This document shows, piece after piece, positions 1 through 7,479 of a DNA stretch of 46,617 nucleotides (the first letter of the stretch is position 1; each line of letters starts with the position of its first letter). The notes under the pieces were generated by a model that searched no databases, was not told where the DNA came from, and saw nothing but the letters and a program-made list of their open reading frames with translations. A program made the position numbers and the translations under genes. This stretch comes from Parcubacteria group bacterium Gr01-1014_30 (GTDB lineage: Bacteria > Patescibacteriota > Minisyncoccia > Minisyncoccales > 2-12-FULL-40-12): the NCBI GenBank assembly GCA_007376185.1, contig VMFS01000005.1, positions 1 through 46,617 on the forward strand, given 5' to 3'.

Positions 1-99
1 AGACGCATTCCCCGCAATGTTCTAGGTCAGAGGGTGTACTTTGTTTCTCCCGAAGATCTTATTTTAAGCAAACTGCTGTGGTATAAAGAAAGCGAGTCA
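1..99 (+). repeat. 99-bp exact direct repeat, copy 1
   Basis: agacgcattc...agcgagtca is identical to 2524-2622; the copies diverge at the next base (g vs a). Confidence 0.97.
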
Positions 100-228
100 G
101 AGCTTCAGTTGCGAGATATTGAGTCTGTTTTGAAATTTCAGAAAAAACTTGACTGGGAGTATCTTAAAAAATGGGCTAAAATACACTCTACATTTAAAAC
201 CTTGGAGAAGTTAAAACGAAATGTTTAG
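1..228 (+). CDS. C-terminal part of a nucleotidyltransferase-like (DUF6036-like) protein, 5'-truncated by the window edge
   Basis: [31 protein letters not shown] is the typical C-terminal helical part of these NTase-fold proteins; nt 1-99 are identical to 2524-2622 inside the NTase ORF at 2194. Confidence 0.75.
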
Positions 229-880
229 TCAAAATCACACCAAGCCGCCTATAAAATCCGTACTTATCGCTATTTTTAGCACAGCCGTTTTGCTTGGCGG
301 CTACTTGGCTCTGGCCGCATGGCAGAGCTGGTGGCCTTTTGAATTACAAAAACAGCAGGCCTGCACGCAGGAAGCTAAAATATGCCCTGATGGTACTGCC
401 GTAGGACGAACCGGCCCAAACTGCGAGTTTGCAGAGTGCCCGCCCGACCCAACCGCTGGCCTTGTCCCGAGCGAAGTCCAAGGGTGGCAAACCTATCGCA
501 ACGAGGAGTATGGGTTTGAGGTGAAGTACCCTGGAAATTGGCTCGTTAGTTTAGGTGATCCTCCGAGTCAATCTTCTCCAGCTTTTGGGCCAGCCGAAAA
601 TTATAGACCTCTAATTTTTATTAGAGCTGGTGCAAGATCATTGGACATGCTTGAGCGATCCTTAGATTCTACTATTTTAGAGAGAAATGAAGTAGTGATT
701 GGTGGCATGAAAGCTGAGGTTGTATTATACCAGCCACACGCACAAAGTTTACCGGAAAAAGACGTATTTTTTAGTAAAGATGGAATTGATTATCTTATTA
801 TAGGCAAAGAAGGCACAGAGGATGAAAAATCTTTAGAAATTTTCGACCAAATCCTCTCCACGTTCAGGTTTTTGGACTAA
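221..880 (+). CDS. Membrane-anchored surface protein, paralog 1 (TM + CTQEAKxCPDG Cys motif + PsbP-like WxTYxNxxYGF..YP domain)
   Basis: N-terminal hydrophobic helix, [43 protein letters not shown]-terminal ILSTFRF. Confidence 0.85.
461..484 (+). repeat. 24-bp in-frame insertion (LVPSEVQG), half-copy of the TTCGA..CTCA/TGAGC..CGAA short repeat family
   Basis: cttgtcccgagcgaagtccaaggg; removal restores PTAG-WQTY; resembles 7581-7601, 24001-24025 and 25771-25794. Confidence 0.6.
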
Positions 881-893
881 ATTATTTAGTTCC

Positions 894-921
894 TTGCATT
901 TATGTGTAATTTAGCTATGAT
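894..921 (+). promoter_or_regulatory. Sigma70-like promoter, probably leaderless transcript of the TA pair
   Basis: TTGCAT-16-TATGAT, ATG 6 nt downstream. Confidence 0.55.
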
Positions 922-927
922 GTAATT

Positions 928-1158
928 ATGACGGTAGCCACTATACCAAAAGAGCTTACTCGAAAAGGCGAGTTGGTAGTAATTCCTCGCAGAGAATACG
1001 AGGATTACTTGCGTTTCAAAATAACTGAAGTGAGGCGTTCAAAAGCTAAAATTGATGCAGGGCTTAGAAAATCGCTGCAAGAACTTCGGCAAGGAAAAGC
1101 AGTGGGTCCCTTCGGCAGCGCAAAAGATCTGATGAAATCTTTGAAATTCGTCCGTTAG
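928..1158 (+). CDS. Putative antitoxin
   Basis: 76 aa, GELVVIPRREYE and ELRQGKAVGPF.SAKDLMKSL motifs, directly upstream of a RelE-like gene. Confidence 0.7.
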   Translation: MTVATIPKELTRKGELVVIPRREYEDYLRFKITEVRRSKAKIDAGLRKSLQELRQGKAVGPFGSAKDLMKSLKFVR

Positions 1159-1161
1159 CTC

Positions 1162-1407
1162 ATGCAAGTTGAATATACTCCTCATTTTAAGAGAAAATTT
1201 GCAAAGTTGTCCGACGTAGTTCAGAGTAAATTTGAAAAGAAAATAACATTACTCTTGCGCAATATCCGCCACCCGTCGTTACACGCTAAAAAATTTGACG
1301 AAGCAGGAGATATTTGGCAGGCGCGCGTGGACGACAACGCGCGTTTTTATTTTAAAATTACAAGAAACACATATTCTCTTCTTGATATTAAGAAACATAA
1401 GGACTAA
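1162..1407 (+). CDS. RelE/ParE-superfamily toxin
   Basis: 81 aa, YTPHFKRKF..L..HPSLHAKK..IWQARVDDNARFYF pattern. Confidence 0.75.
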   Translation: MQVEYTPHFKRKFAKLSDVVQSKFEKKITLLLRNIRHPSLHAKKFDEAGDIWQARVDDNARFYFKITRNTYSLLDIKKHKD

Positions 1408-1410
1408 AAA

Positions 1411-2034
1411 GTGGGTGATTCTCCTCAAAACAAAAGCAATACCTATGTAGTTGTTGGACTCATCATTGCTGCCGTCCTACTCGGCGGATATTTTGCTTTG
1501 GCCGCATGGCAACTCTGGTGGCCGTTTGCAGTACAGCAACAGCAGGCTTGCACTCAGGAAGCTAAACTTTGTCCCGATGGTTCATATGTAGGCCGCACCG
1601 GCCCCAACTGCGAATTCGCCGCCTGTGCAGGAGAAGTTGATGTCTCCAATTGGCAAACCTATCGCAACGAGGAGTATGGAATAGAATTTAAATATCCCAA
1701 AAGCTGGGATGTTAAAGAGTATTTAGGAGAAGGGCAGATAGAGATTTTGGAATATATTCCAGATACACATAATGTAATTTATGTTACTGAAAGCGCTCGC
1801 TCTCTAGAAGAGTGGTTAATAGCTGACGATGAGTGGTCTCTTTATTATGACCCTGAAATGATGACAGACGCAGAGCCATTTCTTATTGGGGGAGAGGAAG
1901 CGCTTTCTGTACAAATTAGCGAACTTGTTCTTCCCATGACTATTATTGGTATCAGAAAAAGCGGACGTCTTTATATTATTGAGAGTAATTCTGGATTAAT
2001 AGATATCCTTTCCACCTTCAGGTTTATTGAATAA
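1411..2034 (+). CDS. Membrane-anchored surface protein, paralog 2
   Basis: Same [25 protein letters not shown] scaffold as 221-880 with an unrelated central region; GTG start. Confidence 0.85.
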   Translation: MGDSPQNKSNTYVVVGLIIAAVLLGGYFALAAWQLWWPFAVQQQQACTQEAKLCPDGSYVGRTGPNCEFAACAGEVDVSNWQTYRNEEYGIEFKYPKSWDVKEYLGEGQIEILEYIPDTHNVIYVTESARSLEEWLIADDEWSLYYDPEMMTDAEPFLIGGEEALSVQISELVLPMTIIGIRKSGRLYIIESNSGLIDILSTFRFIE

Positions 2035-2039
2035 TTTTT

Positions 2040-2237
2040 ATGCAGAGAGTTTCAAAAGCAAAAGTTAGGGCAAAGTTTCTGGAAAGGAAATCCGCACAGG
2101 ATATTCAGGACGAAATTTTTAGGAGCATGTCGGCCGGCAAGAAAATTAAACTTACATCCGATTTTTCAATGTTTTTATTAAAACAAAATCAAAATGGATT
2201 TCGAAGACTTAATCACAAAAATAGCCGCAATACTTGA
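2040..2237 (+). CDS. Small protein partnered with the nucleotidyltransferase (TA-like pair)
   Basis: 65 aa, AQDIQDEIFRSMSAGKKIKL motif, overlaps the NTase start. Confidence 0.6.
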   Translation: MQRVSKAKVRAKFLERKSAQDIQDEIFRSMSAGKKIKLTSDFSMFLLKQNQNGFRRLNHKNSRNT

Positions 2238-3252
2238 CAAATTGTCGATTCCGTACGCCATTACCGGTGGCTACGCAGTTTCTGTATGGGGACGCCTTAG
2301 GGCAACTTTTGATATAGATGTTATCGTTGAACTCTCAGTAGTCAAAGGAGGTGAGTTAACACAGGCGCTCAAAGCGCTCTCTAAATCTGGCTATATTGAT
2401 GAGCTGATGGTGACGGACGCTGTTGAAAGTAAGGGAGAATTCAATTTTATCCATACCGAGTCCGGCATAAAAGTGGACTTTTGGGTGATGGAGCAAGATG
2501 GTTACGGCAGAGAAAAGTTAGCAAGACGCATTCCCCGCAATGTTCTAGGTCAGAGGGTGTACTTTGTTTCTCCCGAAGATCTTATTTTAAGCAAACTGCT
2601 GTGGTATAAAGAAAGCGAGTCAAATCTTTTTCAAAACCAACCTCGCGAGGAACCACCGACTAAGCCAGATTTCGTAGATGATTCCAGGCGGTCACTAAAG
2701 CTGCCACTCGCTATTATTTTAATCGTCGCCGCTTTGCTGACTAGCTACTTTGCTTTGGCCGCATGGCAAATCTGGTGGCCGTTTGAAGCACAAAAACAGC
2801 AGGCATGCACTCAAGAAGCAAAACTCTGTCCCGACGGTTCATATGTCGGCCGCACCGGGCCAAATTGTGAATTCGCCGAGTGCCCGGACTTTGTGGAAGA
2901 TATAATTTTTGGCCTCGAAGCAGAGGAGTTTTGCGGCCCTGAACCGCCGGCAGAATGTGGGCTTGGAACGCGGCTCGGTTGCAGAGTTGCTGACAAAAAA
3001 TGGGATTGCTACGATAATATACCAACTAGTCAGCCCATAGTAACTTTTGAACAATGCGTCGCAGCTGGAAATCCAGTGATGGAAAGTTTTCCGGAACAAT
3101 GTCGGGATAAAAGCGGAGCACTGTTTGTGAATTGGCAAGGAGCCGGCCAGTTTTGTATACAGATTATAGCCCCTGCTAGAAATCCGGCAACAGGCGAAGT
3201 CAGAGAATTTCCTACGCCCTGCGACGTGCCCGAGGGCTGGAAACAAATTTAG
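2194..3252 (+). CDS. Chimeric ORF: nucleotidyltransferase N-terminal 143 aa fused to membrane surface protein paralog 3
   Basis: YAITGGYAVSVWG..RATFDIDV NTase motif up to 2622, then TM helix, CTQEAKLCPDG, FEQCVAAGNPVMESFPEQC and FPTPCDVPEGW Cys modules. Confidence 0.75.
   Translation: MDFEDLITKIAAILDKLSIPYAITGGYAVSVWGRLRATFDIDVIVELSVVKGGELTQALKALSKSGYIDELMVTDAVESKGEFNFIHTESGIKVDFWVMEQDGYGREKLARRIPRNVLGQRVYFVSPEDLILSKLLWYKESESNLFQNQPREEPPTKPDFVDDSRRSLKLPLAIILIVAALLTSYFALAAWQIWWPFEAQKQQACTQEAKLCPDGSYVGRTGPNCEFAECPDFVEDIIFGLEAEEFCGPEPPAECGLGTRLGCRVADKKWDCYDNIPTSQPIVTFEQCVAAGNPVMESFPEQCRDKSGALFVNWQGAGQFCIQIIAPARNPATGEVREFPTPCDVPEGWKQI
2524..2622 (+). repeat. 99-bp exact direct repeat, copy 2 (ends at the fusion junction)
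   Basis: Identical to 1-99. Confidence 0.97.
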
Positions 3253-4520
3253 TGAATAGTTTTGCGGTGAAGTTTGCGGTAATAGCCGATGGCAAAGCGG
3301 TGGGCTTCTGCGTCAACTCGGAGTAAAAGATTGCGCAGTTCGGGCACTAACTCTGAGAGCTTAATTGGCTCTTTTTTATTGCTTTCGTATATTTTTACTC
3401 CTTTGTGACGGCTGTCTTTGGTCAGCGCGATGACATTAGTTTTTAGTTTGTAGTTTTTAGTTGTTAGTAAGGCGGCGTTGAGTTGCGCTTTACCTCCGTC
3501 AACAACTATCAAGCCGGGCAGAGGCCATTCTTTGTGGCGGAAGCGGCGCGTCAATACCTCTTTTAACATAGCTATGTCGTTGGGTTTTTTGTGCCAGCGA
3601 ATTTTAAACTTTCTGTATTCTTGTTTGTCGGAGCGGCCCTCTGTGAAAACAACCATGGCGCCTGTCGCAAACTTTCCTTGAATGTTAGAGACGTCGTAAC
3701 CTTCTATTCTGCGCCACTTCCTCGGCGGCGTAGCCGCTGCCGCTGCAGCTTGGTCTAACACTTTCGCGTTAGACATTACTTTTTCAAGAGAAACAATTCG
3801 GTCTCTTAACAGAGCCGCTTTTTCAAAGTCATGTTTTTTGCCGGCTTTTAACATCTCTTTTTCTAAGCGCAGGAGAACAGTTCTCCTTTGCCCTTTTAAT
3901 ACTTTGATTAGGTTTTTTATGTTTGCCTGATAACTTTTGGGGTCGGGGTTTGGCCCAGGGCAAAGGTTCAGATGGCACCAGGGGCATTTTGTCGCGGGGT
4001 GCTTTCGGGCCATATAGTACGGAAAAACTTTTCTTAGATATTTCAAAGTTTGCTTCAAAGCCCTTCCGTCCACAAACGGCCCAACGTAATTAGTTTTTAG
4101 TTTGTAGTTGGTAGTTTTTAGTTTCGTTTGGTGCGTTATAAGCATGCGGGGCAATTTTTCTTTGGTAACGGCTACGTAAAAGTAGTTCTTGTCGTCGCGC
4201 CATAAAATGTTGTATTTGGGCTTGTGCTTTTTTATTAACTTTGCTTCAAGAAGCAGGGCCTCAATTTCAGAGCCGGTCTCAAGATAGCTAACCTTCTTGG
4301 TTTGTTTAAGACGCTCTCGGTGCTGTTTGACTCTTTCACGCAGGTTGGCCGCTTTGCCGATGTATAAAACCTCTTTGCCCTTTTTGAAGATGTAAACCCC
4401 GGGGCCCTTTGGCAGCCTGCTCACTTGACCCCGTAATACAACTTCCGGCGCGTTCTTTTCAAGAACGCGAAGTCGCCGTAGGCGACCGGAAGATGATATA
4501 CGGGGTTGAGATATTTTCAA
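3249..4520 (-). CDS. uvrC: Excinuclease ABC subunit C, compact form lacking the C-terminal HhH domain; start uncertain (TTG 4520 or GTG 4424)
   Basis: LPKGPGVYIF..YIGKA.NLRERV GIY-YIG domain, FEKAALLRD UVR motif, RIEGYDVSN / PGLIVVDGGKAQ / DAEAHRFAI RNase H-like domain. Confidence 0.92.
   Translation of the reverse strand: MKISQPRISSSGRLRRLRVLEKNAPEVVLRGQVSRLPKGPGVYIFKKGKEVLYIGKAANLRERVKQHRERLKQTKKVSYLETGSEIEALLLEAKLIKKHKPKYNILWRDDKNYFYVAVTKEKLPRMLITHQTKLKTTNYKLKTNYVGPFVDGRALKQTLKYLRKVFPYYMARKHPATKCPWCHLNLCPGPNPDPKSYQANIKNLIKVLKGQRRTVLLRLEKEMLKAGKKHDFEKAALLRDRIVSLEKVMSNAKVLDQAAAAAATPPRKWRRIEGYDVSNIQGKFATGAMVVFTEGRSDKQEYRKFKIRWHKKPNDIAMLKEVLTRRFRHKEWPLPGLIVVDGGKAQLNAALLTTKNYKLKTNVIALTKDSRHKGVKIYESNKKEPIKLSELVPELRNLLLRVDAEAHRFAIGYYRKLHRKTIH
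3436..3468 (-). repeat. ACTA(A/C)(A/C)A heptamer tract in-frame in uvrC (TTKNYKLKTN)
   Basis: + strand ttagtttttagtttgtagtttttagttgttagt. Confidence 0.8.
4090..4124 (-). repeat. ACTA(A/C)(A/C)A heptamer tract in-frame in uvrC (KLKTTNYKLKTN)
   Basis: + strand ttagtttttagtttgtagttggtagtttttagttt. Confidence 0.8.
4429..4505. mobile_element. 77-bp miniature inverted-repeat element (CCCCGT...ACGGGG) with TTGA direct repeats
   Basis: About 20-bp imperfect terminal IR, two inner hairpins (cgcgttctt/aagaacgcg; gtcgcc/ggcgac), TTGA at 4425-4428 and 4506-4509. Confidence 0.8.
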
Positions 4521-4534
4521 CTTTTGTGTATAAT
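4506..4534 (+). promoter_or_regulatory. uvrA promoter (likely leaderless)
   Basis: TTGAGA-17-TATAAT, ATG 8 nt downstream. Confidence 0.65.
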
Positions 4535-4542
4535 TAGCGACC

Positions 4543-7479
4543 ATGACGATAGGCAATTATATCAAAATTCGTGGAGCCAGGACACACAATTTAAAAAACG
4601 TGAACGTTGACATACCAAAGAATAAACTGGTGGTGATTACCGGCATTTCGGGTTCGGGAAAATCATCTCTTGCCTTTGACACGCTTTACGCCGAAGGCCA
4701 AAGAAGATATGTGGAGTCCTTGTCCGCTTACGCAAGGCAATTCTTGGGCGTGATGGAAAAACCCGACGCCGACTCAATTGAAGGCATAAGCCCTGCCATT
4801 TCAATTGACCAAAGAAAGGCCTCGCACAACCCCCGCTCTACCGTCGGCACTATCACCGAAATCTACGATTATTTGCGACTTCTTTTTGCCAGAGCTGGCG
4901 TTCCTCACTGCCCCAAGTGTAAAAAAAAGGTTTGGCGGCAAACAATTGACCAAATTGTGGAGCAGGTTTTGAAACTTCCCAGAAAAACTGAGATTTTAAT
5001 TTTGGGCCCGGTGGTTTCGGGCAAAAAAGGCGAACACCAAGGCGTGGTGGAAGAAATCAAGAGAGCCGGCTTTGCCAGGGTTAGAGTAAACGGAATAACT
5101 TACCGTACAGAAGAAGCCCTTGGCACAAAGTTGGACCGTAATAAAAAGCACAACATTGAAGTGGTGGTGGACAGATTAGTCCTTGATAAAGATTTGGATA
5201 GGACGAGGTTAGTGGACTCTTTGGAAACGGCTTTGAAGCTGGGCAAAGGAACGGTTAGCGTTAATCGTTTAGCGCAGCCCGTATCGTCTAACGTTAGACG
5301 TAAGACGGCAAACGAAACGGGTAGCGATAAACGACAAACGACCAACGATTTACTGTTTTCAGAACATTTTGCTTGCGAGGAGTGTGAAATTTCTTTGCCG
5401 GAGTTGGAACCGCGCCTTTTTTCTTTTAACAGCCCTTTTGGCGCTTGTTCTCCCTGCCAGGGCCTTGGCGAGAAACTTGAGGTTGACCCAAAATTGGTTT
5501 TGCCAAACCCTAACCTGTCAATTGCCGAGGGCGCCATTTTCCCTTGGGCAAGGGCTTCGCACAAAGTTGGGCGCCAGGGGTTTTTTTGGTGGCAGCTGCA
5601 AGAGCTGTCGGAAAAGGAAAAAATTGATTTGAACTCACCGGTTAAAAACTTGCCCGAAGACAAAGTTGATTTAATTCTGGAACTTGTCGTTTCTTCTTTG
5701 GAAAGGCGATACCGCGAAACGGACTCAGAATATACAAGAGAGGAAATTGAGCAGTATATGGTGGAGAAAAAATGCGACAAGTGCAAAGGTAGAAGATTGA
5801 AGCCAGAGGCCTTGGCCGTAACCGTGGCCGGTAAATCAATAGACGAAATCGTTGAAACGCAAGTTGATAGAGCTAAAGAATTCTTTGAAAACCTACTAAA
5901 CCCTAAACCCAGCCCTTTCTGGAAAGAGCGGGGTAAACCCTATACCCTAAACCCTCAAGTGCGCAAGATTGTTCAGCCCATCGTTAAAGAAATCGTTAAT
6001 CGCTTGCAATTTTTGGTTGACGTCGGCCTTGAATATTTAACTATGGACAGGAAAGCTCAAACTTTGGCAGGCGGAGAGGAGCAAAGAATAAGGTTAGCCA
6101 CTCAGCTTGGTTCAAAACTGACCGGTGTTTTGTATATTCTTGATGAACCATCGGTTGGCCTTCACGCCAGAGACCAAGGGCGACTTATCGCGACCTTAAA
6201 GGAGCTGAGGGATTTGGGTAACACCGTTGTGGCTGTTGAACACGATTCCCAAACCGTGCACGCTTCTGACTGGGTGGTGGATATTGGGCCCGGAGCTGGG
6301 AAACACGGCGGCAAAGTAGTTTTTGAGGGAACGCCCAGGGCGCTGTTAAAGGCCAATACGTTGACCGGGAAGTACTTATCAGGGAGGTTAGCGGTTAGCG
6401 TTAATCGTTTAGCGCAGCCCGTATCGTCTAACGTTAGACGTAAGACGGCAAACGAAACGGGCATCGCTACCGATAAACGAAAGACGAATTACTTAATTAT
6501 AAAAGGTGCTAAAGAGCACAACCTTAAAAACATTGACGTTAAGATACCACTGGGGAAGTTCGTGTGTATCACCGGCGTTTCGGGCTCGGGTAAAAGTTCT
6601 TTGATGCAAGACATTTTGGCCAAGGCCTTAATGAAAAAGTTTTACAGGGCAAAAGAAGAGCCGGGGCTACACGAGAAAATTTTGGGAACAGAACATTTGG
6701 ATAAAGCTGTCGTGGTTACCCAAGAACCTATTGGCAGAACCCCAAGAAGCAACCCAGCCACTTACACCGGCGCCTTTACATATATAAGGGATATTTTTTC
6801 CTCGACGAGAGAAGCCCGCGTGCGCGGATACAGACCAGGCCGTTTTTCTTTCAACGTTAAGGGCGGCAGGTGCGAGGCGTGCGAGGGCCAAGGCGTAAAA
6901 AAAATTGAGATGTACTTTTTGCCAGACGTCTATGTTGAGTGTCAGGAATGCAAAGGAAAAAGATTTAACAAAGAAACTTTGGCGGTGGAGTATAAAGGGA
7001 AAAACATAGCCGACGTTTTATCAATGACCGTGGAAGAGGCCTTGGAGTTTTTCAAAAACATACCGGCTCTCCATGCAAAGTTGAAAACGCTCAACGACGT
7101 TGGTTTGGGTTACATTGAAGTGGGCCAGCCGGCGCCCTCTTTGTCGGGAGGGGAGGCGCAAAGAGTAAAACTGGCAACGGAACTGGCAAGAAAGGCGACT
7201 GGCAGGAGTTTGTATATTCTGGATGAACCCACAACTGGGCTTCACTTGGACGACATTAAAAAATTGATTTTCGTTTTACGCGGCCTTGTTGATAAAGGCA
7301 ACACGGTGCTTTCGACCGAACACCAGATAGATTTTATTCGCGCTTCTGACTGGGTAATAGATTTGGGTCCGGAAGGCGGGGACAAGGGCGGCAGAATCGT
7401 GACCGAAGGCCCGCCTTCAGAAATCGCCAAAAACAAAAAAAGCTATACCAGTAGATATCTAAGATCGGGAAGGGCTTGA
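4543..7479 (+). CDS. uvrA: Excinuclease ABC subunit A
   Basis: GARTHNLKN, two [10 protein letters not shown] Walker A motifs, Zn fingers, L(A/S)GGExQR signatures, LYILDEP. Confidence 0.99.
5252..5321 (+). repeat. 70-bp palindromic in-frame insertion in uvrA, copy 1
   Basis: Identical to 6392-6461; contains the perfect 16-bp palindrome cgtctaacgttagacg. Confidence 0.95.
5896..5955 (+). repeat. CCCTAAA heptamer tract in uvrA with a nested 26-bp hairpin element (5908-5933) flanked by TAAA repeats
   Basis: ctaaaccc-TAAA-cccagccctttctggaaagagcgggg-TAAA-ccctataccctaaaccct. Confidence 0.8.
6392..6461 (+). repeat. 70-bp palindromic in-frame insertion in uvrA, copy 2
   Basis: Identical to 5252-5321, same reading frame ([23 protein letters not shown]). 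Confidence 0.95.

Follow-up and report, generated by a model that had tools for sequence, protein, structure and literature searches.

What is the 2.5-kb unit at the start of contig VMFS01000005.1 of Parcubacteria group bacterium Gr01-1014_30? The window analysed here is this entire contig (C4), from its first to its last base, 46,617 nt in length; the genome comprises 11 contigs totalling 769 kb and is rated 97% complete. The first 99 nt of the window are exactly the same as positions 2524-2622, as stated in the preliminary description of this DNA, and the two copies diverge directly afterwards (GAGCTT versus AATCTT). The 2,523-bp unit bounded in this way had been described as an excisable circle, a tandemly amplified cassette or a deletion variant. 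It was said to carry two surface proteins and two toxin-antitoxin-like (TA-like) pairs, to rebuild a complete nucleotidyltransferase (NTase) when circularised, and to fuse the N-terminal part of that enzyme to a third surface protein in the linear sequence. In all probability the 99-nt overlap lies at the edge of a collapsed 606-bp duplication, and the circle and the fusion gene are most likely by-products of the assembly.

The contig end

Position 1 is a physical contig end, as the window matches the whole of C4. An exact match of 99 nt within 46.6 kb is not attributable to chance. To place its length, the longest exact match elsewhere in the genome, at lengths of 20-200 nt, was determined for every oriented contig end (n = 22). 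It was exactly 99 nt at eight of the 22 ends (C1+, C2-, C4+, C5+, C8-, C9+, C10- and C11+); among the remaining 14, five had a match of 28-90 nt and nine had none. Overlaps of fixed length at branch points are a trait of de Bruijn-graph assemblers and here correspond to a final k of 99, or to a k of 100 with overlaps of k-1; the same effect gives circular or repeat-bounded contigs identical k-mers at their ends. Because one constant overlap recurs at unrelated contig ends, the repeat length of 99 nt is an assembly artefact, which marks a graph branch point and has no biological content. The caveat already attached to the repeat, that a graph with k = 99 yields a 99-bp overlap, was thus well placed.

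The overlap shares three features with known k-length overlaps at contig ends: its length is constant, it lies at the very end of the contig, and it borders a longer, collapsed repeat of about twofold depth. It differs from them in that the second copy is internal to C4, giving a lollipop (a loop with an exit) and no closed circle.

The other 99-nt end overlaps (C1/C3, C2/C5, C8/C10, C9 and C11/C8) suggest further joins or collapsed repeats and may be usable for scaffolding. The end of C2 is the start of C5, one end is common to C8 and C10, and the start of C9 recurs in inverted orientation about 2.3 kb from its own position (near 2255-2353 of C9).

A duplicated segment of 606 bp

Depth was read from sequencing run X1, which contains 0.97 of the sampled words of positions 1-3300. 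These data consist of contigs assembled with k = 31, each with one mean k-mer depth. Runs X2 and X3 contain next to none of the words of 1-3300, and the lack of cover there was not interpreted; X3 was used for a single contig, the one ending at 2623. The X1 contigs on this part of the window are as follows.

70-367, depth 13.6: begins 30 nt inside the repeat and continues into position 100
499-2046, depth 14.6: the cassette
2017-2622, depth 27.1: a single contig of 606 nt
From 2623 on, depth 13.8: a contig of 2,823 nt with its far end at 5281

Adjoining contigs share 30 nt, as k = 31 predicts. The last contig obeys the same rule, stopping at 5281, which is 30 nt into the next repeat (start at 5252). 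The depth of the 606-bp segment is about 1.9 times that of its surroundings, whereas the cassette (100-2016) is at flank depth. Because only the segment is raised in this manner, the data fit exactly two copies of the segment and one cassette per genome, with no amplification. The copy that leads into position 100 is called A in the following and the copy that precedes 2623 is called B.

2017-2622, plus strand: true repeat of 606 bp, present twice per genome; it contains the last 18 nt of surface-protein paralog 2, a small open reading frame (ORF) and NTase codons 1-143; X1 depth 27.1
1-99, plus strand: copy of the last 99 nt of this segment at the contig end, identical to 2524-2622; the fixed overlap of the assembler

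Two nucleotidyltransferase genes

The NTase sequences in the window belong to family DUF6036 (PF19502) and are present as two parts.

1-228, plus strand: 3' part of NTase-A, 75 codons, DUF6036, with the 5' part off the contig; PF19502 at 26.3 bits (cut-off 23.6); aligned to residues 111-185 of the relative P0122 with 76% identity
2194-2622, plus strand: NTase codons 1-143, common to copies A and B; 100% identical to residues 1-143 of the database protein P0121

P0122, a relative of 185 aa, aligns without gaps, its residues 1-145 lying on 2194-2628 and its residues 111-185 on 1-225. Because this alignment crosses both pieces in agreeing frames, joining 2622 to 100 would give an in-frame NTase of 185 aa (143 + 42 codons), which bears out the reconstruction proposed earlier. 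The Pfam profile of DUF6036 is distributed similarly, with positions 8-110 on the N-terminal part and 90-146 on 1-225. Relative to the PF19502 gathering threshold of 23.6 bits, the part on 1-225 passes with 26.3 bits and the fused ORF (described below) falls just under it with 22.6 bits; the intact P0121 carries a precomputed PF19502 assignment.

Over the final 37 aligned residues, copies A and B are 62% identical. What lies upstream is thus an ordinary diverged NTase paralog, with the cassette at the depth of the flank, a finding that the preliminary description had named as one that would speak against its proposal. These alignments argue for two paralogous NTase modules with an identical 5' part, for which no circle is needed. 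The enzyme apparently rebuilt by circularisation would then be NTase-A, split between contigs C6 and C4. NTase-A and NTase-B would be old paralogs with diverged 3' ends, and the identity of their 5' parts would go back to a recent duplication or gene conversion. The likeness to known segmental duplication or gene conversion lies in the identity of the two modules over 606 bp followed by a drop to 62% protein identity; the difference is that direction and mechanism are here only suggested by the pattern, and the single collapsed copy on record hides any small differences between A and B. Gene conversion is accordingly named as a probable and not as an established cause.

The best match of the NTase among solved structures is an uncharacterised NTase-like protein (5uvd, E = 9.3e-5). 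Many DUF6036 relatives carry a precomputed PF08843 (AbiEii) assignment beside PF19502, and in 63 of 101 loci there is a small conserved ORF that extends into the NTase start; in both respects the system resembles the NTase toxins of the AbiEii/MenT type. It differs from them in that no significant match to solved chains of this type was obtained (8an4, E = 0.37) and that the upstream ORF is here only about 65 aa long and matches no family; toxicity is putative. A full-text literature search for "DUF6036" returned nothing.

The second copy and the probable order of genes

Among the 11 contigs of the genome, C6 is the only other one that matches the 606-bp segment. Read as the reverse complement, the start of C6 shows FtsH (on the reverse strand), a 224-aa surface-protein paralog (paralog 4), its stop codon, a hairpin, 8 nt and then a 94-nt match. 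This terminal match agrees with 2017-2110 at 93 of 94 positions, the single mismatch being 4 nt from the contig end. The similarity begins exactly at 2017, where the 606-nt contig of X1 starts, and there is none upstream of that point. In the window, paralog 2 ends with the first 18 nt of the segment, whereas in C6 these are an orphan remnant. Because this remnant of paralog 2 sits after the stop codon and hairpin that belong to paralog 4, a genuine copying of the segment, through duplication or gene conversion, is indicated rather than an accident of the graph.

The graph branch would arise where the identical 606-bp segment occurs twice in the genome. With C6 and C4 adjacent through the repeat, as is probable, the genes would be arranged in the following order.

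FtsH (reverse strand) and paralog 4, at the end of contig C6
The 606-bp segment, copy A
The C-terminus of NTase-A (100-228), then paralog 1
The RelE/ParE-like pair, then paralog 2
The 606-bp segment, copy B, then the C-terminus of NTase-B and the start of paralog 3 (about 134 nt absent from contig C4)
The remainder of paralog 3, then uvrC

The fusion junction

In the linear sequence, positions 2194-3252 form one frame of 352 aa, in which the N-terminal part of the NTase runs into paralog 3. This frame is present in the window as the preliminary description had it; the junction that creates it has no support among the X1 contigs, and the genes are separate in another version of the contig.

2622-2623, plus strand: junction lacking about 134 nt that X1 and the other contig version contain, namely the final 40 codons of NTase-B and the first five codons of paralog 3

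None of the listed X1 contigs bridges 2622 and 2623. In the X1 contig that covers 2623, this base is position 165 of the contig, and the 164 letters before it do not lie on 2459-2622; subtracting the 30-nt overlap leaves 134 extra letters. Of the two junctions that the preliminary description had contrasted, only GAGTCA-GAG is seen in the X1 contigs, in the first one listed above, which runs into position 100; support for a single junction was an outcome that this description had named as a sign of misassembly. A low-depth X3 contig from a relative matches 2623-2654, and its 30 letters before 2623 read ...NKIKE followed by a stop, and MSTTN, in overlapping frames.

The same arrangement is found in the protein database, where one contig of 46,768 nt carries P0038, P0032, P0121 and P0001 as separate proteins. 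P0121 is an NTase of 183 aa, of which residues 1-143 correspond to 2194-2622 and the last 40 are its own, ending in ...NKIKE. P0001 is paralog 3, of 214 aa; it starts with MSTTN and then equals the translation of 2623-3249 at 209 of 209 residues. The missing 40 and five codons, with one base subtracted for the overlap of the genes, amount to 134 nt, in agreement with the count from X1. The 40-residue C-terminus of P0121 is not encoded anywhere in the 11 contigs of the genome, its best match being the C-terminus of copy A (62% over 37 residues; all others have E of at least 1.5). The fused protein of 352 aa does not occur among the 120 database matches listed, whose lengths of 114-366 aa would cover it.

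Relatives of the NTase were collected by protein-guided scans with P0121, which gave 23 genome loci and 80 metagenome loci (103 in all). The NTase ORF is complete in 101 of these, with a length of 180-199 aa in 99, 202 aa in one and 237 aa in one, and in none of the 101 is it fused to another domain. The best identity to P0121 was 57% among the genome loci and 64% among the metagenome loci, and the DNA of the missing segment was not recovered from them. An exact search of the metagenome contig collection with 2623-2654 gave no matches. A DNA search of 40 relatives, none of them a genome of the same genus, with 2017-3300 gave matches in seven, of at most 92 nt and at most 88% identity, none of which is informative about the junction.

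On its left side, the missing piece begins precisely where the identity of copies A and B ends. Because of this coincidence a wrong exit from the repeat is favoured over a deletion, and the 352-aa frame would stem from a misjoin at the exit from the collapsed repeat. Misassembly is its most likely origin; if real, it would be a minor variant and not the main form of the locus.

Alternative explanations

Several observations weigh against this interpretation. A junction printed by a graph assembler should be present in at least some reads, and 2622/2623 may exist in the source reads. The X1 data are contigs, which drop rare variants, and X1, which contains 0.97 of the sampled words, may come from a sample other than the source. 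The size of 134 nt is probable, as it follows from the k-1 overlap rule and from the protein ends and not from the letters themselves. The database version of 46,768 nt is longer than the 46,617-nt contig by 151 nt, not 134, which leaves 17 nt unexplained; a 5' partial protein of 75 aa is on record only for the 46,617-nt contig, so that the versions differ at the 5' end too. C6 is 5 nt short of the full 99-nt overlap and has one mismatch in it. Lastly, an integrated cassette and a chromosome accompanied by one excised circle per cell give the same depths and junctions, because the 606-bp repeat exceeds both the k-mer and the short-read length. C6 has the same size (163,076) in both versions, and two versions of contig C4 seem to exist. 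For the 17 nt, the possibility that the longer version is simply this contig extended by 17 bases at its 5' end was considered and rejected, since the 80-aa partial protein then expected is not among the 20 proteins listed; no second frameshift is obvious in a stop-to-stop ORF map of the whole window.

The first of these points would be met by a real deletion of about 134 nt in part of the source population, fusing the N-terminal domain of the NTase in frame to the anchored paralog 3. The contig prints the junction, for which graph assemblers normally need read support at every k+1-mer, the fusion is in frame, and the words missing from X1 leave room for a source sample that is not X1. An in-frame outcome is, however, a one-in-three chance. 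The position of the breakpoint at the end of A/B identity is expected of an error in leaving the repeat and would be a coincidence for a deletion; moreover, the junction is not bridged in X1, both genes are intact in the other version of the contig, and the complete relatives are without exception unfused. A deletion variant is thus unlikely, though it is the most serious of the alternatives. The circle, that is, the cassette together with one repeat copy at an appreciable level in excised form, could be generated by homologous recombination, since perfect direct repeats of 606 bp around 1.9 kb are a substrate for RecA-type pop-out, and the depths and short junctions would be those of the integrated state. 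Nevertheless, genes for replication, for partition or for a recombinase are missing from the cassette; when every ORF in 1-3252 was scanned with Pfam and NCBIfam, no recombinase, integrase or replication family was found. A circle that does not replicate would not hold a ratio of 14.6 to 13.8 between cassette and flank, and both contig versions put the cassette on the contig with uvrC and uvrA, although this is weak, as both face the same graph. The integrated state is favoured because such genes are missing and the cassette is at 1.06 times the depth of the flank. An excised circle at an appreciable level is therefore very improbable, and the claim of an excisable element gives way to integrated paralogs, which suffice to account for the data. 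Occasional pop-out between the 606-bp repeats is possible, as for any perfect direct repeat, and nothing observed here calls for it.

A cassette in more than one tandem copy per genome would contain a head-to-tail junction from 2622 to 100, and this junction does exist in X1. The cassette depth would then be a multiple of that of the flanks, but it is 14.6 against 13.6-13.8, and the repeat at 27.1 (about 1.9 times) is what two repeats with one cassette give. The comparison of coverage that had been recommended as a check, made here on X1 contigs, therefore shows doubling of the 606-bp segment only; tandem amplification is excluded, and the probability left to it is close to nil. It is improbable, if slightly less so than the circle, that the fusion deletion of 134 nt in part of the population and recombination of the 1.9-kb block across the 606-bp repeats are both real. 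If they were, the AbiEii-like N-terminal domain of an NTase would be welded onto a membrane-anchored surface protein, and a block of paralog 1, the RelE/ParE-like pair and paralog 2 would pop out and in, by which an ultra-small bacterium would vary its surface proteins through recombination. A collapsed duplication with a misjoin at its exit remains the preferred explanation.

Surface proteins and small open reading frames

The gene content ascribed to the unit, two surface proteins and two TA-like pairs, was confirmed, with the qualification that the match to RelE/ParE is weak. The genes, together with the third paralog beyond the junction, are as follows.

221-880, plus strand: surface-protein paralog 1, 219 aa; N-terminal membrane anchor, four-cysteine module and PsbP_2-like domain; identical to P0038
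928-1158, plus strand: ORF of 76 aa, possible antitoxin; no family match, the role being suggested solely by its position before the RelE/ParE-like gene
1162-1407, plus strand: RelE/ParE-like protein of 81 aa, weak match (Pfam ParE_toxin, E = 0.027, 15.5 bits, cut-off 23)
1411-2034, plus strand: surface-protein paralog 2, 207 aa; PsbP_2-like, membrane-anchored; identical to P0032
2040-2237, plus strand: ORF of 65 aa overlapping the NTase start; conserved upstream partner of DUF6036 NTases, no known family
2623-3252, plus strand: surface-protein paralog 3, corresponding to residues 6-214 of P0001 (214 aa); 100% identity over 209 residues

The 81-aa protein stays below the curated thresholds of both RelE/ParE models (PF05016, 15.5 versus 23 bits; TIGR02385, 14.5 versus 27.9 bits, E = 0.039), and it has no match in the Protein Data Bank. 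Despite these scores it is kept as a likely distant member of RelE/ParE because the protein atlas relates it, with a score of 0.98, to clusters named RelE/StbE.

In 63 of the 101 complete loci, 15 of the 23 genome loci among them, the NTase is immediately preceded by a homolog of the 65-aa ORF. The ORF matches no Pfam or NCBIfam family, and its best atlas score is 0.77. The TA role of the pair that it forms with the NTase is putative and is suggested by their adjacency. Of the 78 loci with sufficient sequence downstream, five have an anchored paralog no more than 600 nt after the NTase; the neighbourhood of NTase and anchored paralog thus recurs and is not the rule. In two loci from two other genomes (L017 and L019) the same order is found, consisting of an anchored paralog, a small ORF, the NTase and an anchored paralog, and the downstream paralog begins at or just inside the 3' end of the NTase gene.

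An N-terminal membrane anchor and a four-cysteine module are common to the surface proteins; paralogs 1, 2 and 4 continue with a PsbP_2-like domain. The anchor and module are encoded at 271-442, 1458-1629 and 2715-2886 of the window and at 608-749 of C6. At a cut-off of E = 0.001, their sequence has matches in 2,308 database proteins. Among the 120 matches listed, the module precedes varied C-terminal domains, for example IPT/TIG (PF01833) and Gmad2 (PF10648), and some of the carriers are named Nanoarchaeota or Aenigmatarchaeota by their sources. The anchor with its four-cysteine module seems to be a stalk for surface display that is common among ultra-small bacteria and archaea.

Repeats in uvrA and uvrC

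The two genes that follow paralog 3 contain repeats of their own. In uvrA (4543-7479) a 78-nt element occurs at 5252-5329 and at 6392-6469, the copies being 96% identical. It lies in frame, once in each half of UvrA, adds about 26 residues and has no further copies in the genome. As RNA, the copies fold into hairpins of -26 and -29 kcal/mol.

In uvrC (3249-4556, minus strand) a T/G-rich repeat of 34 nt at 3435-3468 and 4089-4122, 91% identical and in frame, encodes peptide insertions resembling KLKT/NYKLKTN. Contigs of run X2 match a 33-nt piece of this repeat at a depth of up to 75.9x, and it may be a widespread short element.

Implications

The significance of this locus is mainly one of caution. 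It would be wrong to list the 2.5-kb circle as a mobile element or the 352-aa fusion as a new domain architecture, and about 134 nt are to be flagged as missing from this version of the contig. In return, a likely join of two contigs is obtained, which leads from the start of C6 through the repeat into C4. The underlying biology would be ordinary, with four anchored surface-protein paralogs interleaved with TA-like modules, two of which appear to have been homogenised recently.

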